In this document: positions 292-40,524 of the stretch, piece by piece
Layout: the number at the start of each line of letters is the position of its first letter
How positions within the stretch are numbered: position 1 is the stretch's first letter
Assembly: GCA_977020255.1 (NCBI GenBank)
Contig: CDROCS010000288.1
Coordinates: 1,798,001 to 1,862,000, forward strand
DNA from: Obrimoposthia wandeli
Taxonomy: Eukaryota
Direction of reading: 5' to 3'
Length of the DNA stretch: 64,000 nt
Program-made: the position numbers and the translations under genes
The notes under the pieces: generated by a model
What the model was told of the DNA's origin: nothing
The model's input: the letters and a program-made list of their open reading frames with translations, nothing else
Databases searched by the model: none

Positions 292-810
292 TCAATCATA
301 CATACTGTACTCACAATTGGTAATTCGTATTTTTTCTATAAAATCTCGTGATGGTTCGAATACGATTGGTCCTTTATCTTTTGATAATGTGTGGCCTTGA
401 ATAACAAATTGTGATCTTTTACCGAATTTTATGGGGTTTTCTATAATCACATCTATTTGATTTATCTGTATGTTTGACGTGCTATCTTTCAATCTTGGAT
501 CTTGTAAATCGATACTTATTCCTTTGAGTTGTGACAGAACATCCATTCCTAAAATAGTTGGTTCAGGACATTCTCTCATGATTCTAACTGGTATAGTGAT
601 CGTATTACAGCCTATTACAAATGCACATGGTAATATTCCCGTCTCTTTTGCAGGGTCTCCGTTGGCCGATACCAAGAATTCATCTGGTTCTGCCATTGTT
701 TATTTCTGTTCCTCTGTCAAACAATCTTCACTCACTATCGATGCTACTGCACCTGTGTCAATTAAGGCTTTTATTTTTAAATTATTGACTCTAATGATAG
801 CTGCTGGTCG
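292..810 (-). pseudogene. Retroviral-type aspartic protease (PR2), interrupted by an in-frame stop at 700-702
   Basis: IKALIDTGAVASIVS active site; FLVSANG flap; ILGMDVL C-terminal motif; ORFs 700..1029 and 292..696 are in the same frame, separated by TAA-ACA. Confidence 0.85.
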
Positions 811-904
811 CTGTGCTTCATTTATATTTCCCATATGGTATATTGTATTTATCAAATTATTACATTTTGTCGGTCCACTTCCTTTGTTTGGATAATGAAA
901 TCTA

Positions 905-1884
905 ATATTTCTCACTTGTCGATCTATAATCTTTCTACAAATCGGACATGTTACCATTTCGTTTGCACATCTCCGACATGTTCTCACATGTCCACTCGGT
1001 AAAAAGGCAACTTCTACTTTGTTGACCATACAAACTGCGCATTCCGGATCTTCCAGTATGTATTCTAGTTCGTTTATGTATTATTTCTCTTTTGTTTCAA
1101 TTGTACTGTCATCTTTATCTCGTAGTAACTCAAATATTGATCCGTATCCATTTCGCGTAGTTTTTATTTTTAATTCTACCAATTCTCTAATCCTGTCTGC
1201 TTCTTTTGGGTACAATCTTCTCACGAATGACACTACTGGTGTATCTTGTTGAGCCAAAATATCTTTCGGTATGATTTGGTATTCGACTATACATTCTGTT
1301 TTTGGTTCTTTTTGCTTATTTTTGTTTTTAAAATCAAAAACTCACAAAATTCGTGATGTAAACTTGCAATGCGTAAACTATCAATAATTCGTTCTTTTCT
1401 GCACTTGTGGCATTTAATTACGTCTTTACCATCCTTTTTTATAGCGAAATGTCCCTTTTTTGCCAGCTTTTTAAGTATTGGATCCTCAAAAGTTACCTCT
1501 CCATATTTTTCGTCACATTCGTTTATTTCTTGCATTACTTCGAATATGTCTTCAGTTCGACAATATTTTTTATTTCAACGCACTTTATTTGTACTGTTCC
1601 TCCTTCTGGAATCTGAACATTATTGTCAAAATTTGGTGTTTTTCCTGCTTGAATTTCTGGATCATTTGCAGTTCTCAGTTTTAGGAGGAATGAACATATT
1701 GGCGCTTTCAGTTTATGTAGTCTCATTGGGTTATCTACTTTTTCCCAATTTTTAAATTTTACTCTGCAATATACACAATGTTAATTAACATTTGTAAACC
1801 AGTTCTCGCCATTTTACATGCAATTTCTTTTGAAAAGTGTGGTTTTAGTGACTTCTGTCTATCCCTCTCGATTCTAAAAGAATC
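905..1884 (-). pseudogene. Inhibitor-of-apoptosis (IAP) module: BIR-BIR-UBA-like-RING, reading in frame into PR2
   Basis: BIR1 (~1884-1682): MARTG..[frameshift]..CVYCRVKFKNWEKVDNPMRLHKLKAPICSFL. BIR2 (~1520-1335, divergent): LAKKGHF..DVIKCHKC..HHEFCEFL. UBA-like (~1240-1110): TPVVSFVRRLY..IRELVELKIKTTRNGYGSIFELL. RING (~1044-905): ECAVCMVNKVEVAFLPSGHVRTCRRCANEMVTCPICRKIIDRQVR. Confidence 0.85.
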
Positions 1885-2038
1885 GGTTTTCCCTATATTC
1901 TCATATGTTACTTTTCTCTTCCTCATTACTTGTGGTCCGTTGTTTACTTCTTTCTAGTGAAGTATCGAATTCACTAGCGCTTCCTGTGTCCTGTTTCACT
2001 ACGAGTTTCCCATACAGAAACTAGTGTAGTATTTCCTT

Positions 2039-2450
2039 TCATCTGTAGGTCAATCTCAATATCTTCATCTTTATCACTGAACTGTTGTTCCTTGAACTCT
2101 TTTTATTTGGCAATATTATTATTCCTTCAAACATAAGTATCACGCCCATCCCAATTATGAATGGACTACCACAATCTGTGAATATTCTTGCATTTATCTG
2201 CAATGCTTTTCCCTCAATAGTTAATTTACATTTCAGTGTTCCTTCTGATACTACATATGTTCCATTTACGTTGACAAATGTTTGTTTCCTATGACATACT
2301 TCTTCTATTTCTTTTGATGACAAGATTTTTTTACTCGGTACTGATACTGCAGAAACAGTATCGACCTCGGCAAGATATTTTCTTCCGTTCATTGTTACTG
2401 ATACTTGTGGTGGAGCATTTGGATTCTCATTAGATATCCTAGACTTCAGA
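2039..2450 (-). pseudogene. First aspartic-protease-like domain (PR1), in frame with the glycoprotein cytoplasmic tail
   Basis: VSVTMNGRKYLAEVDTVSAVSV (DTG changed to DTV), FVNVNG flap, PFIIGMGVI C-terminal motif, within ORF 2039..2779. Confidence 0.7.
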
Positions 2451-2699
2451 ATTCTTCTGGAATTATCTTCTTTATCTTTTTCCTCTGCCTGTAGAATTTC
2501 ATTATAGTTCACTCTATGCCATCTTATCATTAAAATTCCTCTTTCGAACTTTTCTTTCTCTTCCTTCAGTTCCTTCATTGGGTATGGGTTTGATGCTGAT
2601 TCTTTCTTGTCTTTTAGTGGAATTTTTGAATTTCCTGTATTTGGTATTTTTGCATAGTCTCCTGGACTATCGTTATCGTCGTTTCCGTCTCGGCGGTTC

Positions 2700-4716
2700 T
2701 TTAGTTCTCGCGTCATAGTTCTGGCTTGATGTTGCTCCTTCTTGAGGGCTCGTAACTCATTCTCGTGATGATGGGGCATTAGGTATTTCGCTAAAAATTG
2801 AAAACATCCAATTATAAGCTGTCAGGTGATTCCGGTTATCCTGTACAAACTATATGTAGGCAACACCTGAGCTATAATGACCTGTACAAATTTTATTTTA
2901 ACATAAATACCTATGATACCTGAAAATAATTTTCCTAAAACAAGGAATTTTCCTCACATCTTCCTAAGTGTCTGGTGTGCTGCTTCCTTGAAATGACTTA
3001 CCGACAATATCATATCAAAATTCGAATATGTAGCTCCTGGTGGTAATGCACGGTGTACTATTTCCGTAAGTACTCTGGCCCTTCTTACTGGAAACATTAT
3101 TTCGTTCCAGACCGCTTTTAGATCTTTCTCATTGTATAAACCTGCATTTTCGATATTCCTTACCGCTTCGAATTTCATTTTTCCTTTCAGTGTCATCATT
3201 TTTATAATCTCTGGAGTCGCTGTTTTCTTACGGTCAGCTAAGGTTATCCATAGATCACTCGTCATCTGATATTCAGTTTCCATTATATTGGAGCAGCTGA
3301 TTTCTTTAGTTGGAGTGTCATTAGGAAGTATCATTATAGAGATTGGTTCTACAAAGAGTGATTTTAAATTATACGTCACTGGCAATTCGCTTGTGCATCG
3401 TTCTGTTTTTCTCAACTGTACCGCTACCTTTTTGCACTTAAAAGTATATAGTACTTCTCCGGGAGAAGTTCTCCCATGGTTTTAGCAAATACTCTTTCGT
3501 CTAGAGGCAATAATGGTGCTACCATGTCTGGATTTGTAATAGCTAGTGCTAACTTAGTTCTTATGATCTCCTTGTTTAACTGGCAATCTCTCTCAACCAT
3601 CATCTGATATAACTGTTCCATTTGCATCAATCCTTTATGATAATAGAAATCAATTTTATTATTAAAATACGTGTGTAGCTGCATATCGTTAGGTTTTAAC
3701 TTGGTTCCTGCCATTGCTATTGATTCTCTTGACAAAACTATTCCAGGATAATTTGTAGTACTAACAGTCATTCCGCATCGCACTTTATTTCCTTTTTTGA
3801 TAAATATCAATCTTTCTTCTGTTGATGTTGCCATTAACAGCGTAGGTGTTAGCATCGTAGGAATTGGTCCTGTTTTGTTATGAAATCCTTCTCCGCCTTT
3901 ATTATACAGGAAACCTTTTATTTTATTAAATTTGATTTCTTTCAAAAATATTAACGAGCATTGTTTTGGATCCACTTGATACACAATTGTGGATTCCCCT
4001 GTATGACAAGATGTATCTGTCATTCTACATTCCGGATACTTCATCATTCGTTTTGTAGTTTTATCAAAAATGGCTGTCCCTGTTTTAAATTCAATCTCGT
4101 AAGTCACATTTATTACTAAGGCTGTTACTTTGGTACCACGCATATTTTTTGTTCCTCCAACGCAAGATCCATCAGCCCATCATTGTCCTATTCTCGTAAC
4201 TGTTTCATATCGTCTCACACCAACTTTCGCGTCGGGTGCGTAATTCTTATCTATTTCTATTTTTTCTGTTCGAAATGCGTCTTCGCAATCTTTCGGAAAT
4301 ACCTTGTGTGGTTTATACGGTGTGGTAGGTGTGATTTCAGACAAGAAACTTCTATGACCACAGTAAAATTCATGATAATTTGAATGAACTGAACATTCCT
4401 TCGCTTGTACTTGTAGTTTATCAATTTCCTGGTATACGAAATAGTTTTCTACACCTTTAGCTTTTAATTTCGATGGCTGTGATTCTGGACAGTCTTCGCT
4501 GTCAAGCAGTGAATACTTTTGTCCCATCTTTGGTACGCTACAGTCGTACGCTACTAGTGCTGATGCATGTTGCATTCCCATAAACATTACTAACATCATC
4601 ATCATCATCGTTGTGGACATATTTGGTTGGTTGTTCCTTTCTTTCAGACGGTATTGTTTATTTTCTCTTTTACGATTCTCATGACATTGTTCGTCATCAT
4701 CTTCATTCGTTTTCAA
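2700..4716 (-). pseudogene. Chuvirus-like (Jingchuvirales G / class III-type) envelope glycoprotein, fragmented
   Basis: Internal signal peptide MMMMMLVMFMGMQHASA, then LVAYDC..YSLLDSEDC..KECSV..FYCGHRS; TYFNNKIDF..MEQLYQMMVERDCQLNKEIIRTKLALAITNPD; AGLYNEKDLKAVWNEIMFP; membrane region LFSGIIGIY..YSLYRITGIT..IIGCFQFL. The motif order follows chuviral G as I recall it. Confidence 0.75.
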
Positions 4717-4752
4717 AATTGTTTTAGCGTAATCGCTTAATTTCGCCCAACC

Positions 4753-5790
4753 TCAGTTTTCGTCGATACGTTGTTGTAATACATTCTCAATCAGATACAT
4801 TGCTGCACTTATTCCTTGTTTGACTTCGTGAGCTTGACTCGTTCCTTCCGTCAATTGGAAACATAGGTATGTAATTGCTGTGATTAACTTTTTATAAGTA
4901 ATCTGATTTTCAAATAATCTCGCTAAAACTTCACCATCGTAGAATCTGTCTACTGATACATGATATCCCTGGTTTGTAGTCATTCTTTTTACTGCTGACA
5001 TTTGTGATCTAACTGCTCTAATCAAATTGTCTGTTATATCGGTAGTTTAATCTTTGTACATTTGGAACAACTTCGACTTTACTTGCCTGAGAATTCCTGT
5101 AAGTATGTCTTTATTTCACTCTGCACTATACTTCTCTAATGACGCTGCTAACTGTCCAATGCAGTGGTGTCTCTTCTCATCCGTCTGAAGTGCAGTTAAA
5201 ACATTTCGCAATATACTTCCATCCTTTCTAAGTCTTCAGAGTCCTCTTCGAAAATACTGATACTCAGCTTGATTCTCAGCTTGATCATACGGTTCATCGT
5301 TATATCGTATCTCTTGACTTTGTTCTGCTTCATTCTGCCCATCCTTCATTATCTACTAATTTCTGTTGTTTCACAGTGATGACATCAATTTTCTCTTCTA
5401 ATTAGTTTTCTATCAGATATCCAAACTCGACTGGTACATCTTCATCCTCCAGTGATCTTCCTTTATAATAAAACAACATATTCATTCCGTCTATTCCGAG
5501 TTTCTCTGCTAGTTTTTCGAACAGTTTTAATAGTTTGGAATAAGTTAAGTTTTTCGTGTATAATCTGTCCGGAAATTAATCAAAGTAAAAATTTCATCGT
5601 CCCTTTTTGATTTGATCTCTGTACGTAACGACCGTATCCTTTCAATAATCCTCGTGCTCTTTGTAGGTCAAGTTATCATGACTATATTTAACCAACTCTC
5701 CTCGCATTTTTTCCAATCTGTGTACTTTAATTGTTTGTAGTTTTACCAAAACTTCTGGAGCTTCGCTCGCTTCATCTAGCGGTTGATTAA
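4753..5790 (-). pseudogene. Unidentified decayed coding region between gag and the glycoprotein
   Basis: ORF 4753..5025 plus stop-interrupted frames with the same strand bias; no motif recognised. Confidence 0.35.
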
Positions 5791-5794
5791 ACAT

Positions 5795-6855
5795 TTATTT
5801 AGCTTCACTAATTATCTTTTTCACATTTTTCATACTCTTAGCATGTTTTGCTGCTTCTATATGACCAGTCATAGGTTGTACGTTACACGTTTTGTCTATT
5901 GGTGTCTCATACGCTTCTAGTATTCGGTTCATTAAATCATTCATCTCTTCTCTCGTGTGCAGCTTTTTCCCTTGTTGCGACAGCGTAAATGAATTCGCCA
6001 TTTTTGTATGTGGTGAATCTTTGATTATTCCAAACATCCGTTCGAATTTACTATCACTATCTTCAAAATCTACTTCGCGTCTAAGTTCGGTCTCGCGATT
6101 CCTATCGCTGTTATCATTTATGTAACTAAAATTTCCTTTCGGTTTTGGTGACCTTTCACGACTATTTGTCTCGTCAACATTATTATTACTATTATATCTT
6201 CCTGAATTATTGTATCTCTCAGCTCCTTGATGTCTGTCTGCATAATTATTGTATCTGTCTGGCGACTGTTGTCTATCCATATACTCGTGCGTGCGGCCAA
6301 GGTTCTCAAAACATACGCGCATTCATTCACGCTCTCGTCAGGTTTCTGTTTTTGTTCTCTCAAAATTCGCTTATTCACTTTTGCTAAGTCTCCCAATACC
6401 AATTTTTCAAAAAAAGCATCAGCACGTTCTGCTTCTGTCAAGTGTTTATACACTTTGAGTGCTAATCCTGTCAAATGCACCTGTACGCAGACACCTTTTT
6501 CTCTATCGTTCCATCGTTGAACGTATGCGCAACTCAAATATTCAGCGAGGAAGTCACAAATACTTTCCTCATCTCCTTTAAACTTTGTAATCTGCAATGA
6601 TCCCGAAACTTTTGGTCTCAGCGTTGCATTCAAAACGTGTGCCAACTGTTCTGCATTCATATTACCTAAGTTATTTCCTGCATTATTGCCTGGTTGAGCT
6701 CCTGCGTGAGCCATGTTTTCAGCTATATTTTCAGCTATTTCTTCAATATTATTCAAATTAACTTCCTCAATCTCTTTTAGGTTGGCAATTTTGATCTCTT
6801 CTTGATTTGATGCTTCAATAACTTCAATTTCTTCTGGGTTTACTTCACCAAACAA
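5795..6855 (-). pseudogene. Retrotransposon gag (capsid-like domain), frameshifted
   Basis: ITKFKGDEESICDFL..QRWNDREKGVCVQVHLTGLALKVY..LREQKQKPDESVNECAYVLRTLAAR, the typical Gypsy gag major homology region. Confidence 0.8.
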
Positions 6856-8211: not shown

Positions 8212-9466
8212 TATCGATTTTAATTTGACTTAGTAATTTTAAAGGTCCTGTTTTTATTCTCTGAATTGACCTTATTCAGTGGAGTAAATTTGTAAAGGTC
8301 AAGTACATTGTTTTTGTCAAGTTCCCTGTTTCACTTGTGTGAAACTAACACTTACAAGACAATTATAGAACAATTTAAATTAACAGTTACAAATTTCAAT
8401 GTAAATTCGGTTTCACTGTTTCACTTCTGTGAAACTAACAATTACAAATTCAAATACGTTTTCGGCTTCCTAATTTCACTAGTGGGAAATGAACAATAAA
8501 TCTCACCAATTCCGCAAATTTATGAAATGCCAGATATTATTTTTATTTCGGTTTACTTCTCCCCTCTTCCTAATATAACGATCCACCAAAAGTCCACTGA
8601 GAGATCCTCAGATAGCTTCACAGAATCCACTCTTATCTTGGCTCTCCAGTCGTATTGATATCTGGTCTTTCTGGAAGCACTTTCACAATTACTTTAGGGC
8701 AACTAATATCCTTTTCGAATTCACTTTCTGCGTTGATCTCGCTGACTTCTCCCAATTCCAAGTTTGTTGAAGTACTTGTTTTCCGGCTCCGAATTGTTGG
8801 TGGGATTTGGTTTCTCTCTCAGGTCGAGTTTTCTTATTGTTCCATTGAGCTGCGATTCCTTGTCTTATCGTTTTATTGAGCTGTGATTCCTTATGTTTGA
8901 TTTATATTTCTTGTGAGCTGTGTTTGCTGTCACTGCACTTTTATATCTAAACATTTGACGGCTGGCCTCCTTCTCGACTGTCGATTAGTGGCGAGTCTGC
9001 AAGGGAAAATTGCACTTTAATTAAAAGCACTAAACTCTAAAACAACCAAAATCACTCACTCTCGACAATTTCCACAGCCGGTGTCTTCTCACGGCAATGT
9101 CTGGTCTGCAATTTCCTAATGACTTCGTCGTGTGACTCTGCGAGCAAGTTTCTTCTTGGCAATTCTTAATGGATTTCTCAATCTAGTTTTTATATTTACT
9201 TCTTTCTTTATTTATTATTGTGAATTAATTACTCTTACTTTTTGTCGTTAATTACACCTGTTCTCTTTTCTTAGGTGTCTTAATTACTCTCAATCCTTTT
9301 AGGGCCCTGAACTTTTCTACATATCTCACACCAAACATGACCTTTTGAGGTCCTAACTTCCTTCTAATTTATCAATTTTAATTTCATTTAGCCTTGCTTC
9401 CAAAGTTTTTATTTTCCTATATAATAATTAATTAATTCTGTAAATATTAAAATTCTGATCCTAACA
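8212..9466. repeat. LTR-like segment ending in CCTAACA, with a GACC-N7-GGTC hairpin shared with segments at ~48.5 kb and ~52.5 kb
   Basis: GACCTTTTGAGGTCC at ~9340; the terminus at 9466 interrupts the end of the TBP-like pseudogene. Confidence 0.4.
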
Positions 9467-9879
9467 ATATCATAACTTTACCACTGGAAAATATATTTAC
9501 AAATAGCGGTGTAAACTTCAAATATCTGAGTGCAGGAAAAATGTCAGGTTCAAACATGTATTCTTATTTCATTTTCTCTGCAATTTTATAAATATTTATT
9601 GATTTCCCAACATTACCTGAAACTGTGATTGATTGTATGGTGCTGATTATGAATTCCAAATGGTAAATTGATGTCATTCAACGGTGTTTTGCATCCCATA
9701 AAACGACAACTTCCTAAAAAATTCAATATGGAAATAAAATAAAAACTAACCTGAAGGAAATATGACAACTGTGAAATCATCAAACCTTTCTCATATTGTT
9801 TCGGCTTTCACTCATTGAATGGTAAGTGCGAAATATCATCTTCTATTCTTCCTTTATAATTTATATTTACGAGCTTCAA
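9467..9879 (-). pseudogene. TBP-like pseudogene homologous to the Polinton gene at 38900-39364, with an apparent 37-bp GT-AG intron (9714-9750)
   Basis: LVNINYKGRIEDDISHLPF..KPKQY / FDDFTVVIFPSG^SCRFMGCKTP / IQSITVSGNVGKSINIYKI..MFEPDIFPALRYLKFTPLFVNIFSSGKVMIL; co-linear with the Polinton protein; two stops and two frameshifts. Confidence 0.8.
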
Positions 9880-12800
9880 TAGATAAAAATTATTTTCTGT
9901 AAATTATTCTTTATATATGGCTGAACTTACCTTTTTATTGCACATTTCTTGTAAATATCTTGCAAATCTATTATAATTGGATGATTCAAATCTAATATAT
10001 TTCTTCCAATCAATTTCATTTTAAAATATTGATTTAGTCCAATCAAATTGAATGGTTTAGTCATATTAGTCAATGATATTCACGTCTTTGTTACAAATTA
10101 GTATAAAAGAAAGCGCCATTGGAGAACAAATAATTATAAATGCATTCATATCAAAGACAATTATCAGTGATATTGAGCGATTATGATGATTTAGAAATGT
10201 AAGAAGATTCAGGTAAAAACTTGTTTTGAAGAAGTGAAACAGTATTTCAAATATAAAGTCAGATTCTTGAAGAAGGCTCAACTGATTGCTTTAGTAAATC
10301 CTGTGACAATTGAAATAAGAAAGTTTAGCTATTATCTATCAAATGTTCAAAGACAAGATTTTCATTATCTTAAACAGAAAGTTGATAAAGCAATTCGAAG
10401 TTTTACATTCAATAAGAACGAATTCTAAACCAGCGGAGCTGATGCAGCATTTTTAGATGAATATGGAAGAAAAAAAGATTTTGATGCATTACGAAAAAGA
10501 ATCAATGGACTGTAACAATTCAGCTTCATGGATACAAGAAAGTTGAAATTCGAACAAAGCACCTATGTGGAAAATTGAATGTGCTCGTGTCCATATGTTT
10601 CAACTATTTATTTACTTTATTTTTACCATGTTTCTTTCATCTGCATGTAATAAATTGTAATGTTTTATTTATTTTTATTTCATAATATTTGTATCTTATG
10701 TGTATTTTTATAAACATTGTTTTATAATCAGTTGCTTTGATTTAGAATGGATCGCCTTCTCAGATATGTAGGAAATTTTTATTATCCGGAAAGAATTTCA
10801 GAAGAAAAACCATGTAATATATTAAAGAGGCATCAAATTATACGAATAATAAATTCTGGGAAAATATCAAAAGTAGAAAATAAATATCGAATTGAAACTT
10901 TCACATAATCTGATATTCATAAATAGAAAAATATTTTAGGCTTTTACATACCTGATTATGTATACGAAGGAAATTCTTTCCAGCTTGAAACTGATCCCAG
11001 TCTGGCTTTTAGAGATAATCTAGGTTATTTAATTGTTCCTATTTTAGATTAAAAAAACTATGGAATATTTCAATACGACTCAATGGATATTATACTGATG
11101 ACGGGAAAACACAACCTCTTTGGACTTTGAATGAAGCTAATATGGTGTTTATATTTGATTTTTTTAAATAAATGTATTGAAATGAATTTTGTCTTGTATT
11201 TTATTATTTTCTCCTATAAATTATATAAATCTGACCTAAATATTTTGTTCTTTTAACATATATAAAAGATGTAGTAATTTATTAATCTAAAATATGTTAT
11301 TAGATTTCCTTCTAACATACATAAAATAGTAGTCATATATTCATATAAACTCGTCGTCATCCAACTCAGCGATTAGAGTCGCTTGTAATTGTGACTGAAT
11401 TGATTAGATTTGCACAGATAAATGGAGAAACCAGAAAGACTGAGAGTGCTGAAAAAAATTAGATTCGCAGGAGACAAGCCATATAAGTCAATAATAGTCC
11501 CCGAGTTTCCAAGAGCCACGTTGGGACCAAAAAAGAATGGCCGTATCAAATCGGAGACGCAGAGGAAGATCCGAATCAGTCAATTAAGAGGAATTAAAGC
11601 GACCAAGAAACAAGGACCAGATCAAAAAGATACCAAAATAATCTACACTCTGGCGCATTTAGATAATTATCGCCGCAGTCAATAGGTTCCGGCTTCTTTT
11701 GCCTATTTCAGGTCTTGGTTTTGGCCAAACCATTTTTGAATCTAAAATTGGCCTAACCGGCTTAATGTATCAGCCCCACATAACACAACAATAGTTTTAG
11801 GGATCATCCAATTATCCTAAACACAGGCTTTGCAACACAATCCTACAAACCTTCAGACAATAGAAAACGCCTTCAGATAATAAAGAATAGGTAGGCCACT
11901 TCCATCTGTAAGCCATATCGCTACAGAACTCACGTTGAGGGCCTCCATACGAGAATTCTAAGTAGGTTTCATTAGAAAAACCCAACAAATTTAATGTTTA
12001 TTTATTTTTGAAATAATTTTTGACCTGTGTATTGATACAATATTTTATTAAGAGTCATTAAACAGTATCAAATTTATAATATCTGTTATTGTAACGTTAT
12101 TTACAAATTTGTATATTTATATATATCTATGTTAATATTTGATCTTTAAGGACTTGGAATAATAAATATTTTATATATAATTAAATATCTATTTACTCAG
12201 AATTTTATTTTCAATTATTTTCTATGAAAAATATTATTTGACATGTAATCTTTCTTAGACCCAAATAAAACTAAAGATTGATCTGTATAATTCATGAAGT
12301 GTGACTCAGGTCATTATTATTTCCCATAACTTATTTATGATGGTATAAACATTTAACTTTACGCTTACGATGTAGGTAAGTAAATTAGTGGATGGGAAAA
12401 TGAATGCAAAATCCACGAAAATCAGACATCGGTATGTAGCGTGTTTTAAATATAAAAATAATCGACATGAAGATTTTTATGAAACAATTTAATAACCTTC
12501 TAAAGAAGATGATTTTGTATAAATTTACTCTAATTAGTTTGATTCTGATATAACATAAATTATATTCTCTGCATTATTATCGATTAATATATTTATTTTG
12601 TAATTGTATTTTTTATAACTATTTTCATTATTTAATCTGTAACCGCCTAGAATATAAAAACATCTGGCATCGCAAAAATTTACTAGAATATGAAGGTACT
12701 ATTTGAAAAAAAACTGAAAATTACTCTTAAATTGCATAAGATGAAATAAATAGCTACACAAAAAGGAAAACAAAATTTAGTAAACCATCAAAAACATTTT

Positions 12801-12884: not shown

Positions 12885-14920
12885 CTACAACTCTGTCTTG
12901 GCATCATCCTTCTTGCTGTCACCCTCAGCTCCTCCAGGTGGTGGTGGGGTTCCTCCTTGTTGCTGGTACAGCTTCGTCATGATGGGCTGTACCACATCTT
13001 CGAGCTTCTTCTTCTGAGCCTTGAGCTCCTCAGCCTCAGCATTGGCGTTCTTCTCGAGCCAGCTGATAGCTTCCTCGGCCGCCTTCACCACTATCTCCTT
13101 GTCGGCTGGAGTCAGCTTTCCTCCGAGCTTCTCCTTGTCATTGGTCTGGGTCTTAAGCGAGTAAGCGTATCCTTCCAGCTCGTTCTTGGCTTCGACCTTC
13201 TCCTTAACCTTCTTGTCCTGCTCGGCGAACATCTCAGCATCCTTGATCATCTTCTCAATATCCTCAGTGTTTAATCGGTTCTGGTCTTTCTGGATGACGA
13301 TCTTGTTCTTGTTACCAGTACCCTTGTCCTCAGCAGACACTTTCAAGATGCCATTGACATCGATCTCGAATGTGACCTCGATCTGTGGCACTCCACGAGG
13401 TGCTGGTGGGATTCCAGTTAGATCGAATTTACCGAGGAAGTGGTTATCCTTGGTCATAGGTCTCTCTCCCTCAAATACCTGGATGGTAACGGTGGGCTGG
13501 TTGTCAGCGGCAGTGGAGAAGACCTGGGATTTCTTGGTTGGGATGACGGTGTTCCTGGGGATTAACTTAGTCATGACTCCACCCACAGTTTCGATACCCA
13601 GGGTAAGAGGACACACATCGAGCAGAACAATGTCACTGGTATCCTCGGCACCACCAATGATTCCGGCCTGTACCGCAGCACCGAAGGCCACAGCCTCATC
13701 AGGGTTGATGCCTCTGCTAGGCTCCTTACCATTGAAGTACTCCTTCACAAGCTGCTGCACTTTGGGAATTCTGGTACTACCTCCAACCAGCACAATCTCA
13801 TGTACATCCTCCTTCTTCATGTCACCATCCTTCAGCACCTTCTCCACTGGCTTCATCGTGGACTTAAACAGGTCCATGTTCAGTTCCTCGAATCGAGCAC
13901 GAGTCAGTGTCTCACTGAAGTCATCTCCTTCAAAGAAAGATTCAATCTCGATTCTGGCGCTATGTGCGTTACTCAGTGCTCGCTTTGCCTTCTCTACCTC
14001 TCTTCTCAGCTTCTGGATAGCCCGATTGTCACCAGTGATGTCCTTACCCTTCTTCTTCTTGTACAACTTTCTGAAGTACGCCATCACTCTCTGATCGAAA
14101 TCTTCACCACCCAAGTGAGTATCACCATTGGTGGCAACCACCTCAAACACACCGTTATCGATTGTGAGCAGGGATACATCGAAAGTACCACCTCCGAGAT
14201 CGAACACTAGAATGTTCTTCTCGCCTCCCTTCTTGTCCAGTCCGTAGGCGATAGCGGCAGCAGTGGGCTCATTGATGATTCTCAGCACATTCAACCCAGC
14301 GATGGTTCCGGCATCACTGGTGGCTTGTCTTTGAGCATCATTGAAGTAGGCGGGAACAGTCACAACAGCATGAGTTACCTTCTTACCGAGATATGCTTCA
14401 GCAATTGTCTTCATCTTTCCAAGAACCATTCCAGAGATTTCTTCCGGTGCGAATTGCTTGGCCTCTTCACCAATATTGACCTCAATTACAGGCTTGTTGT
14501 TTTTGTTGATGACCTTGAAGGGGAAATGCTTCATGTCTTCCTGGACAGTCTTCTCCTGGAATGTGCGACCAATAATTCGCTTAGCATCGAACACTGTGTT
14601 CTCAGGATTGGTGGTCAATTGGTTCTTGGCGGCATCACCAATCAATCTCTCGCCTTCTGGAGTGAAGGCAACATAAGAAGGTGTGATACGATTTCCCTGA
14701 TCGTTGGCAATGATCTCAACACGGCCACCTTTGAACACTCCAACACTGCATTTTTAAATCAATTTTATTGTCAATAAAATAATCATTACCATGAATATGT
14801 TGTTCCGAGATCAATACCAATAACGGTACCGTACTCTTCCTTCTTCTTCTCCGTTTTCTCTTCAGTAGCAAATACCGACAGTATTGCTATCGCAAATATA
14901 AAAAAGAACTTAAGTTTCAT
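12885..14920 (-). CDS. HSPA5: ER Hsp70 chaperone BiP/GRP78, 663 aa; exons 14920-14790 and 14745-12885, 44-bp intron 14746-14789
   Basis: Signal peptide [18 protein letters not shown]; [12 protein letters not shown]^VGVF; Hsp70 signatures [14 protein letters not shown]-like and [13 protein letters not shown]; C-terminal KTEL; GT-AG intron restores the frame. Confidence 0.97.
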
Positions 14921-23144: not shown

Positions 23145-25008
23145 TTCCAGCCGGGATTCAGCCGGGATTCAACAAAAACAATTTTTTACTGAGAAATAAA
23201 ACTTCGATGGAACTGAAATTTTGCATGTAATTTGAGATCGATGTCTGGTCACCGTTTCCAAAGTTTCATTCAAAAATATTTATTTCTTCCGGAGATATTC
23301 TCCACCAACCCAGGTTCTACCAGCATTTATACATTTCTGAAACTAAATATCGAAATGTCAATTTCCGGCTCGCGCAACCGCCGAACACAAACCGCTGAAA
23401 TTTGGCAAGCAATTTGTGATCGATGTCTGGCCACCGTTTCCAAAGTTTCATTCAACAAAAAAGTTCAAGGGTCCAAAGATATGACTCAATAATCTTAAAA
23501 ACTTTATAAGACCTTGTCAGTGGTATATATAATTTTGTTAAATTTCTTAAAACCAAGCTATTTAGTGGGTTTAACACAATCTAATGTTAATTATTCAATC
23601 CGTTCAATGGTTCTAGAGATATGAGGTACCAAAAGTCTATATTTAGGGGAAAATGTTGAAGTATTAAAACAAAACATCTGATTCTTTCTAAAACTTAATG
23701 CAAAGTAGGAATAGATATTTGCAAGTGTTTAAATCCATCTGTAAGACAATCAAAGTTGTAATTGTTGCTAAAGTTTGGATCTAAAGGGCAAATGGGCAAC
23801 TCTTAGGAATCGTGGGACCATTATTGATGGAAAGGTATGGATAATTTTAATAAACAATGATAGCCATTTCCATTGGTCTTATTGGTATCTCTATTCTGTG
23901 TGAACTTTAACTTCATAGCACTGTCTAAATAACCTACACTGAGTGGTACATTTACTATCTCTGATATAGTGAGGGGAGATGTTGGTCAATGCGGATCTCC
24001 TCAACCACGAGTCATATTGACAAACGGCTTTTTGTATAGTGTTCAGGATACTCTAGTCTATGTTTCTGGAAGATTTCAATACGGGGGATATTATTGGGCC
24101 AATGTTTTATCAATGGTCAAAATATGGTACTACAAGGTTCATTTTCGATAATTTTCAATCCTAATGGAGCAATATGGATAGCACCATCGTGTTCCTGATC
24201 ATCGATATAGTATATAAGGAATATAAAAAATGTGAGGAAATATATTGGTAGAATGAATATATTAATAAGACAAATGGAAATGACTATCATTGTTTATTAA
24301 AATTATCCATACCTTTCCATCAATCCCACGTTTCCTAAGAGTTGCCCACTTGGCTTTTAGATCCAAACTTTAGCAACAATTACAACTCCGATTGTCTTAC
24401 AGATGGATTTAAACACTTGCAAATATCTATTCCTACTTTGCATTAAGTTTTAGAAAGAATCAGATGTTTTGTTTTAATACTTCAACATTTTCTCCTTAAT
24501 ATAGACTTTTGGTACCTCATATCTCTAGAACCATTGAACGGATTGAATAATTAACATAAGATTGTGTTTAACCCACTAAATGTTATGGTTTTAAGGAATA
24601 AAAATAAATTATATATACCACTGACAAGGTTTTATAAAGGTTTTAAGATTATTGAGTCATATCTTTGGACCCTTGAATTTTTTTTGTTGAATGAAACTTT
24701 GGAAATGGTGGCCAGACATCGATCACAAATTGTTTGCCAAAATACAGCGGTTTGTGTTCGGCGGTTGCGCGAGCCGGAAATTGACATTTCGATATTTAGT
24801 TTCAGAAATGTATAAATGCTGGTAGAACCTGGGTTGGTGGAGAATATCTCCGGAAGGAATAAATATTTTTGAATGAAACTTTGGAAACGGTGACCAGACA
24901 TCGATCTCAAATTGCATGCATAATTTCAGTTCCATCGGAGTTTTATTTCTTAGTGAAATAATATTTTATTTGAATCCCGGATGAATCCCGGATGAATCCC
25001 GGCTGGAA
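23145..25008. mobile_element. Fold-back / non-autonomous DNA element with ~740-bp inverted arms and a ~380-bp spacer
   Basis: Arms 23145-23883 and 24265-25008 are reverse complements (TTCCAGCCGGGATTCA...TGAATCCCGGCTGGAA); the same ORF appears on opposite strands (23232..23492 +, 24632..24910 -); no TSD identified. Confidence 0.85.
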
Positions 25009-30557: not shown

Positions 30558-33500
30558 GTAATCTCTCCCCATAAATGAACTAAGAATTTCTAAAAGGGTA
30601 TTATACACTTACAATTATCTGTAATTGAATTGTGTCAAATATTCATATAAACATGTCTGTTTTGATTTTGGATATTATGTTACAGAAATGAAATTGCTAT
30701 AAAATCTACAACTACTAACAAAATCGAAATGTAGTGATGTATTTATAAATCTAACAACCTTCTTCAAACTCAAAAGACTTCTAAATTATCGAAAGATGTA
30801 AAATAATGCTATATAAAAAATTACTTTGCATATATGTATTTAACTACATAATATCATTAAGTTATTAGATTATCTATTTAAAGAAATTTTGCAACTATAT
30901 TAAAATGAACAGTTAAGTATAAGTCAATTACTGTGACCACATCCTTTTTAATGTCTAATTTTTCAAAAAATAATGAAAGTAATTAGGATACTCTGTGGCA
31001 AAGAAAATTGCTAGAAATTTTTTAATCAGGTCATTCATTACATGCTCGTGAGGACATTGAGATTTGTTGAAGATGCCCGCTCAATCCGGTCATCACATAT
31101 TTTTCAAAGTAAATTTACTGTAACATTTAAGCAAATCTTTAATAAATGTATGGTCTATTTGAAAAAAGTTATTTTTTGAATTAGACCATGGCACCTTAAA
31201 ATACATTATATGTGTTTGAATACAGACCAGACTTAGCGTTAGTTTATGCTGAAAAGTTATTGAAAATGAAGCAATGTATACTTGGACCTCATCACCCATT
31301 GACAATTCAAACTGTGAACGAGATTGAACTATTCAAAACAAACTATCTGATGGAAAATCAAAGTAATTTTCATTTTTCTACATTTATACTTACATAATAA
31401 CATAATCAGATAAAATATATTTACAAAAAAGTATTGAATAGTACGTTTCGACACTGGGGAATGAAAACAAGTGTAGTAATATGTTCACAAGTCACTTGTA
31501 AGCGTTATTTCCTTTTGCCAATATTTATTCACAACTTCATTGCGTATCAATTTAGAAATTTTATGAGCAAGTAAAGTAAGGTTTCAAAATTTCAGTCATG
31601 CAAATCGAAATTATCAATTTAGTTCTTTTTGATTATTTTTGTCTTATATCACTGAGCCTTATATAAAAGAAATTATGGCAGGGAAATTTAAAACTATTTA
31701 AGATAGAACAATTTGATATTTCTCATTATTCTAATGTATATATTTATCAGAGATTTTTCAAATATTCAACCGATAAAAATAAATTGAAAGGAATTTTACA
31801 ACATTTGTGTATTGGCTGACTAGGTTTGACAAAACAAATAACATGGCTTCGTCAACTGTTATCACAGCTGCTTCCTGCGTAAATTCGTGTGTAAAGTTTA
31901 TGCATGGCACTAACTCCATGGTACAATATCTGGTGAAAGATCTAAAAAAGAGTTAATCGTAACTATTTACCTAAACTGTCACCGATATTTAAAAATCAGT
32001 GAATTAACGCTTTCTTTTTTGTTACCCATCAGAAAATTCTATATCGCTGTTTTTTTTAAAGAATTTTTATGTTATTTGAAAATGAAATTGTACAATGTAC
32101 ATGTTGCAATATCCAATTTTTATAAAATGTCCATAGAATTTATATTGTCTTATCAACTTTTTTCAATTATATTGTCAGAAAAAGTACCTGGATATACTTT
32201 GAATTAGAAAATTGTCTGTACATCGTGAGACAATGTTAACTTACTGTGTATAAATTCATACGATCAACTAACAATTTATTTATAATTGTCAATTCACAGC
32301 TCGTACTCTTAACTCACAATAACAATACTCTCCACCAAAAATCACATAAACACAAACTATGGCCATTTACAAAATGTTTGACTATTTTATAGCCATACAA
32401 ACACACTCTAAAGTGCAAGATACGAAGCTCAAACCGGCTTATTGGTCATTTCTCCAATTAGCCCGGCCTCTCAACCAAATGACTCTGTATTCTTGCTGAA
32501 TCATATTATGAAATTTACTTATAGTACATTTAATAATATAAATTTCCAACCTCTACATAAATCTTTCTGTTTTGAACTATACTCTTTTTTATTATTTTTT
32601 AATAAAAATGTACTAAATTTGTTAAGAAGTAACTAGTAATTTTATAAAAGTGCATTTTTGTAAAAAGTTAGTAAACAGTAAACCATAATCTCAAATAAAC
32701 ATATTTCTTTAAAAAAAATTATTAAAGTAAAGAAAGTACACTGAATATGATGACATTGAAGATCTAATTACTTTTCAATTTTCATAACTTCAATATTTAA
32801 GTTTCAAAATAAATTTATGTTAATTTTATGTATCATTTTGTTTATTTTCATTTAATTTTATTCGTTTATTATTAGTGTTTGTTTATAATTTCAGTGTTAT
32901 GAAAAGTGAAACTTACCTTTTGATTTAACTAAATTTAAGTTTGTAAGTTAGGAAATATAAATATAACCAGACTTACGATGTTATAGTTTCTGGTGTAATA
33001 AGATTTCACAGTTTATTTCGTTATTTATATTACGAGCTAATTTACAAAATGAAATAATCTGTGGTTGTTTCGTATCGAATTCTTTATAACCTTTTCAACC
33101 TTCTTTTACAAATTGTGATTAGTTATAAGATATTAAGTACAATAATAAAATTTTTGTTGAAGTCTGAAATCAGAACATCGAAAATCTGTTAACTTTCTAT
33201 TTTCATAAATTCGAAGCCTAAATTTTGAATTTTCGAGTAATCAAAACTTACATTTCATATTTTTTAAATTAGAAACTCTGATAATAAATTTTAAAAATTT
33301 TAAAAATATCATTATTATACTAAATAATAGCAAAATTATATTAGGTTTGCTTTATTCAAAATAATTTCAACTAATCCATTTTATTTCCTAAGGAATTAAT
33401 TTAAAGGTTTAGAGCAGCGGTTCCCAACCTGTGGGTAGCGACCCCAACTGGGGTCGCCTGACAATTTGCCTGGAGTTGCCTAAGGCAGCAAGGCCTTTTA

Positions 33501-33916
33501 AAAAGTTGTTTTATGATACCGAATGTCCTTGTGTTGTATTCTCGCTGTAATATCACTATTATCTAATTATAATGGTCAATTAACTCATATTCTACCAAGT
33601 TAGACAAAGTTGAAGATGTTCCTGAGAATGCACAAGAGGAGTTCATTGAACTCATTACCAGCGATGCAACAAAAACTGATTTTTCTTCAATATCAGTTAC
33701 CAAATTTTGGATCAAGAGTTTGCAGTCATATCCTGTTCTGTCTGAGATCGCATTGCGCCTGATTCTTCCTTTTCCAACAACATACCTTTGTGAAACAGGC
33801 TTTTCAAGCTTGTTGGTTATCAAATCTAAATACAGGAGCAGAAGATGATCTGCGTTGTGCTCTTGCAAAGACTGCTCCAAGGATTTCAGATCTGGCGAGA
33901 AAGAAGCAATCACAGT

Positions 33917-35075
33917 AGTAGGTAGAAGGATGGAGTCTAGACCACTTGACCCCCCCTGTGTGCGCACAGAATGTTAAAGGATTTTTTCACCATAAGGGTG
34001 TCACACCATAAGGGTATATGTTGCCTCACCATAGAAATGTCACACCATGAAGGTATATGTTGACTCACCATAACGATGTCTTGCAACACCATAAGGGTCT
34101 GGCTCAGAAAGGTTAAGATAGAGGGGAGGGAGGAAGGGTCAATTGATCTAGTCTCCACCCTTCTTTGGTATACCATTAAAGGGTTGTGATCGTCCATAAT
34201 TTAAAGGGTCAGGCATAGTTTTGACTTGAAGGTTTTAAGGTATGGTCATGACCGTCTATGGTTGGCCATCACATCTAAAGGGTTGTGGTTGTCCATAAAT
34301 CAAAGGGTTAGACTCAGTTTTGACTTGAAACTTTGAAGGTATAATTAAGGTCAACTTTGGTTGGCCATCACATCTAAATGGTTGTGCTCGTCCATAAATC
34401 AAAGGGTCAATGTCAGTTTTGACTTGAAACTTTGAAGGTATAATTTAGGTCAACTATGGTTGGCCATCACATCTACAGGGTCATGGTCGTCCATAGGTCA
34501 AAGGGTCCGGCTAATTTTTTTTTTTTAAATATCAAGGTTTTAGTACATGGTTGTAATCATCTTTAGAAGGTGAATTCACCCATAAAGTATGGCCGTCCAT
34601 AAATCAAAGGGTCGAGCTATAGACCAAATCAAGTTTTAAATGTCAAGGTTTGAATACATGGTTGTAATCATCTTTAGAAGACGAATTCATCCATATATGT
34701 ATGGTCGTCCATAGATGAAGGGTTAAAGAAAAGTTGGAATTTCATAGTTTCAAGTACATGGTTGTATTTGTCAACATATTACGCGTTTATTCATGTAAAA
34801 TTTTTATGGTCGTTCACAAGGTAAGGGTTAGATTTGGCATAAATTAAGAAATTATATAGTGTTCAATCAATTATTCTATGTGAAAGTTCACTCTTAAAAG
34901 TTAAGGAATGTATTACGTAATCACACATACACTATTCTATGTGAAAATTTAGTATAAAGTTCACTCTTATCAGTTAAGGAATGTATTACGTAATCATACA
35001 CACACTATTATATGTGAAAATTTAGATCAATATTTTTTCCTAGGCTTACACATCCAAAGAATTATGTTAAAATTT
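33917..35075 (+). repeat. Polinton left TIR with internal tandem subrepeats
   Basis: Reverse complement of 45688-46537 plus extra subrepeat copies (e.g. GGTTGGCCATCACATCTAAAGGG units). Confidence 0.9.
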
Positions 35076-35136
35076 ATAGTAAATCAAAAATAAATAAGAA
35101 AGAAGTCAGAGAATAATACAAAATTAAACACATTTA

Positions 35137-38100
35137 TTATGTAATTTCATAATGTCCATAAGCGCGGCTTCTATTTTTCTCGATCCAATAGCGTTTGTCA
35201 TCTGATGAGCTGAGAGCAGTCTTTTGTGTTATGATTGTGTATAGTTGATGATTTATTGTTCCAAACTTCTTTTGTGGTATAGTATATGCATTACCGTTTT
35301 CATACACGTCTAAATATGTTTGATGTACAACCGTTGATCCCTTAAGATTTACTCCTTTTGCTTTATTATTTTCAAAGTCATCTTCAAATTTAAGTGAATT
35401 ACATTTACAAAGTAAGAAAATCCATTCTTTATACATTCTTCCTTCCGATTCATCTTTAAATAAACCTATTTTACTATTAAATTTATTAGAATATAATGGA
35501 TCATTCACATTATAATTTGACGTATCTAATAATCCATCTGCAATCATTTTTGGTAACAACTGCTTTCTTAAATTAATGTTTTTACATTCCAAAAAGAATG
35601 AGTCGGTATCACCGGCAACTATATTAATTGAACAATTGAATAAATTACGATATATTTGCAAATCATGATACTGAAGAGTATACATTCGTAATTTGCTAAG
35701 GTCTAGTACAGCTTGGCCTATATAATTTGGTCGATCGAGACAAATAAAGTCTTTTCTTAATAAAACAGCTATTAAATTATCATGAATTTCAATTGTTCGT
35801 TGAAACATAGGTTTGCTAGTATATGTAATTAATTTTGTAGAACTAGTGCAGATGCGAAGATTCAACCGTTTCTTAACATTTTCAACGGTCTTTCCATACA
35901 AACTAACATTTTTAAGTTTATAAAAATCTTTGTCACATTTATTCGTTGCTTGTGATCTCATTTCTGAATTATATTCTATATATTCTGCGAATATCTTAGC
36001 CTGAGAGAATTTTACTGCTCGATGAATAATTGTTACCACTGCTCCTAAACTAACATACATCTGCAATAGTCTCCAATGAATAACATAATGACTTTTTAGC
36101 GAATGCGTCATTAAAAGTTTTTCAACTTTTTTACCAGGTGGACATTTCTTTTCTGGAGCTATAGGAAGATCGTCTAAAAAGTCATGAAGGTTTTCTGGTA
36201 TTACCAAGTCTACTTCCATAACATAACCATATTCAATATGTTCCATGTTCACATTTTTCATTTCATGCAATATTTCGTTTAATTTTATATCATCAAGAAT
36301 CCATTCAAAATCTCCTTTTGGTAAAGGTTGATCAAGAGCCCATCCATATAAATTATTAACATCTATATATAAAAGACTTGTTTCTTCATCAGCGACTACA
36401 TGATGCTTATTGACAAATGTCATTCCTCCTCGTATACCCGAAGAAATCATGTTGTACATTTCAGGATCCTGCATCAGTTCAACCTTATGTTTTAACATTT
36501 TTAGAGCACTTGCCCAACTCAACCCAGGAATGCTAAAAAGTTAAGTGGTTCTAAACCATCTTCACTGAGAGCTTTTCTTCTGAATGTTTGAAACACGTCA
36601 GCTAATAAATATACGTCAGTCTTTAAGTAAACTAACATATAATCCAACATATTTCTACAATTGGTTATTTTCCAAACATCTTGTGCTTTTTGATATTCAG
36701 TGTCTGTGATTTTATCATTCCATTTTACTGGTAAACTTAACTTATTCTGGAGGACATTTAATGATGTAGCAAAATCATATAGGAATATTCCTTTGCCATC
36801 AATAAGTTTAGATGGAAAAACTGATCTTGTTAATGGAATAGTTGGTAATTTACCGGCTAAATTTTCCAAAGATGATTGCAAAAATTGCAAAGAATCTATA
36901 AATCTCAGAGTTATTTGACCTAATCTTACAATCATGGCTTGAAACATTTCCGTTGATTGTGGTATAATATTTATATCCCAGTCAGTAAATTTATTCAATG
37001 CATATTTTAAAATATGATGTAAATCATAACCTCTGAGATTATGAAACACAATAGGTAAAGTTGGACAAAGTTTTCTTGATAAATTACATTCATTGCATGC
37101 AGGATCTAGATACTTGCCAGTAAAGTGATCATGATCTTTAACATATTTTTCAGATGATTCGTGACATAAATAACATTCATCGGCATTGCTAAATGTACGA
37201 ATCTCTGCATTTGTTAAGGGAATCATTACGTTTTTAAGAGCATCTAAATACCATGGCAAAACCTTTTCTTTAGCCAAGTTCTCTATTGACTGAAGAAATT
37301 TAACTATGCAGTCATCACCAACATTATGTTGATACTGGGTTTCAATTTCATCTGTACTCATAAATAACATACCAGATGCGACAGGCATATGCTTTTGATG
37401 ATAACTCTCATCTGGTACTAATACAGATTCAAAATCAGCGTAAACGACATATTTCGGTGATATAGTTTTTGACCAATCGTTGAATTTAACGTACTTATTC
37501 TTAGGCATAGTATACATTGTAGTGCTTTCTTGATTATAGTCACATAAAACTTTATGCTTTTCTAATTACAAATCGGTTTTGAAACCATGTAAACACTTTT
37601 CACACCATTTTCTGCTAATTCTAGTCTTTCCAGTTCGAATATTTAATAGTCGGTTAAGACAACTTATTCCTATATAATGAAACCGTTCCTTGGATTCTAG
37701 TAACAATAAATTAACTATAGTTCCTTCCTTCATTTTTGATTGGTATACAACATCGATATAAGGATTCTTGATAACATCAGTTTTTGATTCTTTTTCACTT
37801 ACCTCGTTGAATATGAATACATTTATTATTATACCAGGATTTTGCCGTTCAAATTTTGATATATTTGATATTTTCATAGGCATGTCTTCGGTATTATATA
37901 CAAAATCATTTAAAAATCTTTCATAGTTGCTTGGTCTATTTCTATGTGATTCTATTTCATTATATTTAAGTATTGACAATATTGCATAAATAAAGCAAAG
38001 ATTATCAGAGTTTAGAATATTTATGACTGCTTTAGATTTTGTAAGAGAATTTGGTGATTTAATATATGAATGACCTGACAATGCACAAATTTGACTATAT

Positions 38101-38408
38101 TTAGTAGCTATAAATGCATATTCAAGTATATTCATCAATTTCCAACAACTACCCTTTTCTGAATATTCTTCAACTTTATTTTCCATTGTATCTTCCATTT
38201 CTGAAATTATAGCATGTGAAAAAATCATTGCTCGATGTGAAGCATACCATTCTTTAGTTTCTCCATCATTCTTTTCAAACCTCATTCTGATGATGTATTG
38301 AATCTTTGCATTTCCCATTAATTGCACTATTCTTTCTAGTTCATTTAATAATGAAACTGGAACCTTAAGACTTACAAGATTGAGATGATCTACTTTCATG
38401 GATATCAT
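35137..38408 (-). pseudogene. Protein-primed DNA polymerase B with an endonuclease-VII-like HDH..C..CN insert
   Basis: YADFE, HDHFTG..ACNECN, FHNLRGYD, DSLQFL, IRGG, YIDVNNLYGWA, YGKT, DTDSF motifs; in-frame stop at 37566-37568 and a frameshift near 36540. Confidence 0.93.
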
Positions 38409-38488
38409 TGAATAACTATTTTTTAACGATGTTTTAGTCTGTATATTGTCATTTTTTTTACGTTTTCGTGACGGAGTAGAAGCTGGAA

Positions 38489-38827
38489 TTACTTTATTGA
38501 TGGTTCATTAATTATATCAGTTCTTTTGCTTAAAACCGGTACTTTAAATAATGTTTTCTTACTACCATTTTTATATTCTTTTAAATGACTAATATGTCGA
38601 CTATAAAAGAAGTTGTAATCAACATTTTCAGTGCTTAAACATTGTGGACATATGAAATAATTTATTCTTTTGTATGAATAACCATAATAATTTTTCATGA
38701 TATCATGACAGACTTGAGGATTAAAATCTGTTTCCGATGAACAATAATTTGAATAAGTTTTACATATACTCATCTGATGATATGATTGGTATTGAGACAT
38801 TGATTGATTTGATTGGACTTGAGACAT
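38489..38827 (-). CDS. Polinton hypothetical protein with a CPQC..H motif
   Basis: Intact 112-aa ORF divergent from the TBP-like gene. Confidence 0.5.
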   Translation of the reverse strand: MSQVQSNQSMSQYQSYHQMSICKTYSNYCSSETDFNPQVCHDIMKNYYGYSYKRINYFICPQCLSTENVDYNFFYSRHISHLKEYKNGSKKTLFKVPVLSKRTDIINEPSIK

Positions 38828-38899
38828 TTTGATCTAAAAAAATAAATAAAAATAAATATATATATATATAAATACAATAATTTAATTATTTTACTTACA

Positions 38900-39364
38900 A
38901 TGTTAACAAATATTAATTATAAAGGAATTTGCTTAGATGATGTATCCAAATTAAAATTTCGAACACGACCAGAACAATACGTTTATAAAGCCAAAGATTA
39001 TACAATACTTATTTTTAGAAATAAGAAATGCAGGATTATGGGATGTAAGGTACCTATTAAAAATATTTCTTACCCTTTAAGAATAAATATACTTGGTATT
39101 CAATCAATTACGGTATGTGAAAATTTAGATCAAAGTATCAATCTATTTAAATTATGGAATGTGTTACGTAATACATGTTCATTTGACCCTGAGGTTTTCC
39201 CAGGCTTAAGATTAAATATTTTCAATCCATTGTGTGTAAATATTTTCACATCTGGAAAGGTCGTAATTTTAGGTATTAGAAATTTAGATTTTCAAAATCA
39301 AGTTAACGATATCATGACATACATTAAAAAAATTTTATATAAATACGAAACAATTTCTAATTAA
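38900..39364 (+). CDS. TATA-binding-protein-like protein (two-repeat TBP fold), Polinton-encoded, intact ORF
   Basis: TNINYKG..TILIFRNKKCRIMGCK (repeat 1); IQSITV..SFDPEVFPGL..VNIFTSGKVVILG (repeat 2, hallmark of TBP: YEPELFPGL..LIFxSGKxVxTG). Confidence 0.85.
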   Translation: MLTNINYKGICLDDVSKLKFRTRPEQYVYKAKDYTILIFRNKKCRIMGCKVPIKNISYPLRINILGIQSITVCENLDQSINLFKLWNVLRNTCSFDPEVFPGLRLNIFNPLCVNIFTSGKVVILGIRNLDFQNQVNDIMTYIKKILYKYETISN

Positions 39365-39379
39365 ATCATTCAATTTTAA

Positions 39380-39730
39380 ATGTCTTATAAAGCTGTTCAA
39401 AAGTATTACGAGTATGATATGTTCTTCTTGGCATCTGCATGGATTCATCCAATGACTATGCCAGTGACATTATCGAAAACTTCGTACAATTACCGAGTCT
39501 CTGATTTTGACAACAAAGACATTCAACAACTCAATGATGTCATCAAATATTTGAAGATTGACGTTGAACTTGAGAATGAGGGTATATTTATGCGCGGAGA
39601 TAAGTGTAAATTTTATGATTGTTCCGGAACAAAGATTTCGGATAATCAAGAAGATGGAAGAAGTTGGATGCTCGAAATAAAAATTCTCGGATATAAAATA
39701 AATAAAAAGAATCAAACAACTCTCATCTGA
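39380..39730 (+). CDS. Polinton hypothetical protein
   Basis: Intact 116-aa ORF between the TBP-like and ATPase genes; beta-rich, function not recognised. Confidence 0.5.
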   Translation: MSYKAVQKYYEYDMFFLASAWIHPMTMPVTLSKTSYNYRVSDFDNKDIQQLNDVIKYLKIDVELENEGIFMRGDKCKFYDCSGTKISDNQEDGRSWMLEIKILGYKINKKNQTTLI

Positions 39731-39839
39731 AGGATTCATACAGCGACCGAATATTTTGATGTTTAATAAATAAATATTTAATAAAATGTTGTTATTGTTA
39801 TAAACATGGACTTATTCTGATATATTTATTTTATATTAA

Positions 39840-39873
<34 letters not shown>

Positions 39874-39875
<2 letters not shown>

Positions 39876-40504: not shown

Positions 40505-40524
40505 TAATAAAGTTTTAAAATAAA

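Follow-up and report, generated by a model that had tools for sequence, protein, structure and literature searches.

The stretch at positions 9467–9879 of the window, the whole 64,000-nt piece of DNA analysed here, is in all likelihood a dead fragment of a Polinton (Maverick) family, virus-like mobile elements whose TBP-like gene holds an intron that the active element carries and the host's splicing machinery removes. Taken alone, the copy in the window is an unremarkable decayed piece of this family (family B), and the case for the intron comes from comparing many copies of family B and of related families. On the reading that we prefer, host RNA polymerase II would transcribe the element in the nucleus, the major (U2) spliceosome would remove the 37-nt insert, and the joined exons would yield a mini-TBP of ~150 aa; as inferred from its protein family, this protein may help the element to begin transcribing its own genes. 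Gain of the intron probably took place within this clade of Polintons, once or twice at one site; amplification of the elements would then have spread it, and the genomic copies, the one in the window included, would have decayed neutrally thereafter. These elements thus likely need the splicing machinery of their host, although Polinton and Maverick genes are generally described as free of introns (PMC8097293).

A decayed TBP-like gene within a Polinton relic

The features of the window that bear on this reading are as follows.

9150–9466, minus strand: edge of an unrelated repeat that cuts off the relic; its copies stop matching at 9466–9475
9467–9713, minus strand: exon 2 of the family-B TBP-like gene, decayed and cut ahead of the C-terminal helix
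9714–9750, minus strand: 37-nt phase-1 GT-AG insert, a putative U2-type intron, with the same site in families D, E and F
9751–9879, minus strand: exon 1 of the family-B TBP-like gene, decayed (without start codon, with a stop at 9810–9808 and a frameshift)
9467–11350, minus strand: relic, left part of a family-B Polinton; 80% nt identity to a young copy (9465–11236), old copies extending the match to ~11350
10140–10425, plus strand: decayed homologue of the 107-aa family-B ORF upstream of the TBP-like gene (81% aa, residues 32–101)
10768–11049, plus strand: decayed homologue of a 98-aa family-B ORF (73% aa)
14746–14789, minus strand: host BiP intron of 44 nt, for size comparison
~33917–46537, no strand assigned: family-A Polinton with inverted termini, pPolB pieces, integrase, ATPase and capsid-like genes
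38900–39364, plus strand: intronless TBP-like gene of family A, 154 aa (PF00352, E 6.5e-13)

The initial annotation had proposed homology between 9467–9879 and 38900–39364, and this is borne out: tblastn of the 154-aa ORF against the 64,000-nt window gave minus-strand matches at 9873–9649 and 9665–9465 (joint E 2e-20), covering residues 2–124 of the 154 in the family-A TBP-like protein in two frames. The 37-bp GT-AG segment that it had described is likewise there, beginning with GTTAGT, ending in TTTTAG, meeting an in-frame TAG at once and lying in phase 1, and once it is removed the codons on either side align with the family-A protein without gaps. The copy is dead, with its start codon lost, stops at 9810–9808 and 9566–9564, frameshifts in both exons, and the last 30 residues missing beyond a cut at 9466/9467 made by another repeat.

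The same annotation had placed the gene outside any Polinton, which is wrong, since the stretch is a high-copy repeat whose neighbours are two further family-B genes. Among 4911 first-look candidates, all 40 scored nucleotide hits matched at 87–100%, and a protein search for family-B copies returned 150 hits in 150 scored. The relic spans ~1.9 kb and stops short of the element terminus; a search of the 50 kb to the left did not recover the rest of the element, nor was a second LTR of the truncating repeat at 9466 found. Those 50 kb hold pieces of at least three Polinton families, and elsewhere Polintons are nested across families, with B inside E (L327, G000:C1071:598214-608098; L322). Two other elements lie in the window: a decayed minus-strand element at 292–6714, probably an env-bearing retrotransposon, with a match to a viral fusion glycoprotein (PF24664, E 9.8e-16, at 3424–4143) and a weak aspartic protease match at 2039–2779, and a 1.85-kb element at 23148–24994 whose inverted arms are long and nested (315 and 361 nt, 94–95%).

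Better preserved copies reveal the kind of element from which the relic derives. Homologues of family-A genes adjoin ten old B copies with flanks. The elements around ten young copies share a fixed gene order that includes pPolB, integrase and capsid-like genes among others. The neighbours of the B gene match the family-A integrase, ATPase, capsid-like and pPolB genes at 25–75% aa, the integrase being a 311-aa ORF (PF00665, rve, E 8.3e-14) and the packaging ATPase a 215-aa ORF (Pox_A32, E 1.4e-06), which adjoins the TBP-like gene in D, E and F also. Conserved ORFs without a library match occupy the places expected of a penton protein and a protease; by gene position and motifs they are candidate penton and cysteine protease genes. 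One full B element (G000:C288, ~32289–47595) has inverted termini of ~430 bp (434-bp arms, 84%) with AGTAG ends, and its flanking duplication is alike at five of six positions. In many B copies (young copies; 9900–9880 in the window), the start of the TBP-like gene is overlapped by a stop codon of an upstream frame (TAATG), as in coupled reading frames.

The family-A element of the window provides an intronless comparison, and all 150 scored genome hits of its TBP-like protein were at 96–100% aa. Its pPolB pieces match PF03175 (E 1.4e-13) and those of B, D and E copies at 40–58% aa. Its 406-aa protein gave no direct match in Pfam or PDB, and its nearest atlas clusters (0.97) carry PF21738 on 15–65% of their members; through these atlas neighbours, we read this protein and its B homologue (54–68% aa) as putative double jelly-roll major capsid proteins. 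A broken ATPase and a protease-like gene (39874–40495 and 44870–45121) also lie in this element, absent from the 100-aa ORF list.

Other candidate interruptions were set aside. The pPolB of the window's family-A copy is broken in two places, which were rejected as further introns because the junctions are continuous frames in family B and the breaks are private to that copy. An extra 27–30 nt in the homologue of ORF 45182–45634 was also rejected, being in frame, identical in many copies and read as coding. A pattern search for a possible break between the 46-aa and 109-aa ORFs of family B gave no match.

The insert across copies and families

Within family B, the insert was present in all 68 distinct copies that span the site, at 33–42 nt (modes 37–39), with GT in 58 and AG in 60 of them. 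Among 19 young copies (mean 96.7% nt), exon 1 measures 130 nt and is stop-free in 17, the insert measures 34–40 nt with AG in all 19 and GT in 15 (the other four having a changed donor G), and in 17 the frame, if left unspliced, stops at 44 aa; as these copies were picked by an exon-2 search, exon 2 is biased to be intact in them. The 29 old copies have mismatch rates of 0.073, 0.061 and 0.072 at codon positions 1, 2 and 3, against 0.054 in the insert and 0.061 at GT/AG. Because the copies decay neutrally (0.061 at GT/AG versus 0.054–0.073), the keeping of GT/AG within the family reflects inheritance and not selection, and we rejected it as proof of the latter.

Comparison between families gives the decisive evidence, a spliced intron being typically marked by an interior that drifts as its position, phase, ends and length stay fixed. 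At the same codon, and in the same phase, two Polinton families just left of the window (L209, L212) are interrupted by 37 nt with GT-AG ends and other interiors. Family E (30 copies) has 37 nt in 28, GT in 26 and AG in 28; family D (19 copies after removal of one duplicate) has 37 nt in 18, GT in 18 and AG in 19; and family F, which is old (mean 75% nt between copies), has a mode of 36 nt in 23 copies, with GT in 20 and AG in 18, four of 27 rows having been dropped before the count (three partial, one near-duplicate). Phase 1 is common to D, E and F. The interior of the insert is no more alike between families than shuffled sequence for B–D (0.42, shuffled 0.47) and B–E (0.48, shuffled 0.50), and stands at 0.70 for D–E. 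The elements that house the D and E genes also hold ATPase, integrase, capsid-like, protease-like and pPolB genes, and the core genes are uninterrupted in at least one D copy. With the insert found in full B elements and in D, E and F, the suggestion of an intron-bearing Polinton family, one of the origins offered initially, gains support.

The flanking sequence evolved as coding sequence. Between B, D and E, synonymous sites approach saturation, with a pS of 0.66–0.92 against a pN of 0.16–0.38, in exon 1 and exon 2 alike, family D being represented by one copy, with four others skipped by the pattern; exon 1 has no indel between these families. To judge from these rates, both exons are under purifying selection during family divergence. 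In the four codons from the acceptor to an internal Met, the changes between families are synonymous and leave the amino acids as they were, which argues that these codons are translated together with exon 1, as a separately started exon 2 would not need them. Without removal of the insert, reading ends after ~44–50 residues, at once inside the insert in B and a few codons into it in D and E.

By sequence similarity, the predicted product is TBP-like. Exon 2 of family B alone matches PF00352 (E 4.2e-12), and the family profile matches both repeats of archaeal and eukaryotic TBP (PDB 1mp9, 2z8u), the second repeat most strongly. In the predicted model of the family-A protein (pLDDT 92.6, pTM 0.83), the first repeat has strands and no helices, and the intron site falls at a turn between two strands, so that both exons would be needed for the modelled fold. 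Fourteen related proteins start at the internal Met that opens exon 2 (P0074, P0081, P0085, P0101, P0110, P0111 and eight more); some of them may be intron-bearing genes of other organisms cut by gene callers, and automated gene calls should be expected to cut this TBP-like gene to its second exon.

The site is uninterrupted in all 35 copies of families A and C; family C (L169, L170, L172, L173, L175) has an intronless 144-aa TBP-like gene, 55% aa to that of A, in the same gene order. All 27 metagenomic relatives covering the site are also intronless, a count biased by the scan's two peptide patterns, which suit intronless A-like proteins better than family B; a Polinton ATPase adjoins the gene in 8 of 28. 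A scan of viral contigs gave only five distant TBPs of canonical or giant-virus type. No copy with precise loss of the intron was found among the 68 B copies or in contigs from reads. Four sequencing runs of one sample cover coding and non-coding sequence alike, as DNA would, and so give no evidence on splicing; none of the nine joints listed lies at the insert ends.

Host genes, phylogeny and competing explanations

The host supplies a standard for the size of the insert. Among 22 host introns inferred by alignment in tubulin, BiP and TBP genes, 12 are 37–50 nt (37, 40, 42, 44, 44, 45, 45, 47, 47, 48, 48 and 50 nt) and ten are longer. The size match to the 44-bp BiP intron that had been pointed out is accordingly loose: the insert does fall in the host's short class, but at its lower edge, only one of the 22 being shorter than 40 nt. 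Five host TBP-family genes were found, none of them interrupted at the matching motif of repeat 1. Host TBP1 and TBP2 have introns before and after the core of repeat 2, and the TBP2 donor, GTTAGT, is the same as that of family B. Two canonical host TBP genes stand head to head ~600 bp apart (G000:C238:871798-874002; L156, L157), their introns (47 and 48 nt) being placed alike; C968 holds further TBP-family genes, and two intronless paralogues are on C60 and C1092. The assembly also holds bacterial-type ftsA/ftsZ loci of several kinds (L278–L299), which are contaminant or symbiont contigs.

In a quick tree of 79 rows, host and canonical TBPs are separate from a single clade that takes in all element proteins (SH-aLRT 100), and B, D and E fall together (89). 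In a quick tree of 45 rows, family F branches apart from these three, with intronless rows between. A careful tree of 27 rows, made without 18 long or redundant rows that included the host outgroup, again joins B, D and E (89/88) and puts F apart with intronless rows between, which needs two state changes; a single clade of B, D, E and F is not rejected on it (p-AU 0.207). A tree of the ATPase joins D and E, its deep nodes lacking resolution.

These results bear directly on the direction of change. The intron could be old: the common ancestor of all TBP-bearing Polintons in this host lineage would have had it, with precise losses in A, C and the metagenomic relatives, which is a variant of our preferred explanation with its direction reversed. 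The separate placement of F in the free trees and the two state changes of the careful tree speak for it, but the single intron-bearing clade that the data tolerate, the uninterrupted site in every A, C and metagenomic sequence covering it, and the lack of any precise-loss copy among those searched make it rather unlikely. One gain, two gains at one site and an old intron with losses are all possible histories on the sequences compared; gain is favoured because many relatives are intronless.

Another reading is that nothing is spliced and the gene is simply split, a 44-aa peptide being followed by a 105-aa single-repeat TBP made from the internal Met by reinitiation or recoding, with GT and AG incidental. 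Such a Met does stand in frame five codons into exon 2, 14 relatives start at it, and exon 2 is recognised by PF00352 by itself. We consider this improbable, however, as GT, AG, phase and a length of 36–38 nt are kept in four families with diverged interiors, the codons from AG to Met evolve as coding, and the differing stops of B and of D and E leave no shared end for a separate peptide. Still less probable is that a single dead copy received the 37 bases by chance, or that they are an introner. In favour of this, short GT-AG spans of 34–40 nt start at 1.5% of window positions and GT with AG at exactly 37 nt at 0.25% (chance level), and introners do enter polinton-like elements of dinoflagellates (PMC11957031). 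Against this, the same codon is interrupted in four families, and, when the B, D and E inserts are searched for in a 1.77-Mb sample, 142 of 144 matches lie in TBP-like exons, the other two being AT-rich and partial; the loci of this sample are biased towards these elements, and it is not genome-wide.

Two further origins raised in the initial annotation have fared badly. Domestication, in which a Polinton TBP-like gene became a host gene, gained an intron and later decayed, could draw on the absence of Polinton core genes beside the window copy and of the rest of the element within 50 kb to the left. The copy is nevertheless one of many, lies beside two other family-B genes, and has intron-bearing counterparts inside full elements, and the neutral decay of old copies argues for excluding domestication, which we regard as very improbable. 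Capture of a host paralogue of TBP or TRF, its intron included, would have a precedent in nematode Mavericks, for which host-derived cargo genes with introns are described (bioRxiv 10.1101/2022.07.12.499685). It is, however, the least probable origin that we weighed: on the tree, the proteins join the intronless Polinton-type ones (SH-aLRT 100) and are separate from host TBP and TRF, and the introns of the host genes lie elsewhere than at the repeat-1 motif.

If the preferred reading of a host-spliced intron is correct, it is conceivable, although we hold it to be doubtful, that the intron is a switch and not a passenger, so that splicing of one message would gate the element's transcription programme. 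What suggests this is that the insert is the only interruption found among the element genes compared, that it sits in a predicted transcription factor, and that it is at the host's minimum size (36–38 nt). Were it so, these families would be tied to hosts able to splice micro-introns, and would be nuclear viruses dependent on host polymerase, not helpers of cytoplasmic giant viruses.

More generally, an intron held at one codon of an element-type gene across four diverged, amplified families would mean that the RNA of active Polintons goes through the host spliceosome, and this would argue for nuclear transcription. The presence of families with (B, D, E, F) and without (A, C) the intron in one genome offers a natural comparison of how introns arise and persist in virus-like elements.

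Comparison with known systems

The openly accessible literature searched gave no account of an intron in the TBP-like gene of a Polinton; passages of PMC6431247, PMC12220804, 10.1101/2023.08.22.554363, PMC11296320, 10.64898/2026.10.13.758929 and PMC9004415 have no bearing on it, those of PMC12220804 concerning group I introns in PLVs. As to the protein, cellular and archaeal TBPs (PF00352; 1mp9, 2z8u) are similar in both repeats, whereas here the protein is ~150 aa and its model lacks the first-repeat helices. A TBP-similar gene in a midsize linear dsDNA element is shared with a MELD/adinto-like virus, where it appears as a figure label for non-animal datasets, with no intron described in the passages available (Starrett et al., 2021, PMC8502044).

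In their general make-up, the elements resemble vertebrate Mavericks, with terminal inverted repeats, a 6-bp target duplication, pPolB, integrase, ATPase, protease and capsid genes, and most copies decayed. The available passages on those elements report no introns within intact elements' genes and mention neither TBP nor TATA (Barreat and Katzourakis, 2021, PMC8097293), whereas four of the families described here have an interruption in a conserved TBP-like gene. For nematode Mavericks with wasp or krma cargo, intronless core genes are described together with intron-containing genes aboard (Widen et al., bioRxiv 10.1101/2022.07.12.499685). Their cargo is, however, a recent capture from the host, while the gene described here is of element type, with intronless orthologues in sister elements and no origin from host TBP. 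Spliceosomal introns occur within the maverick-polinton-like elements of dinoflagellates as introners which, according to the passages available, were mostly inserted after integration (Gozashti and Corbett-Detig, PMC11957031). Those introners are repeated and transposon-made, in contrast to the one intron at one site seen here, apparently inherited through amplification and without dispersed copies in the 1.77 Mb. Set beside these systems, the families described here very probably represent a Polinton variant in which a gene of the element's own type would depend on host splicing.
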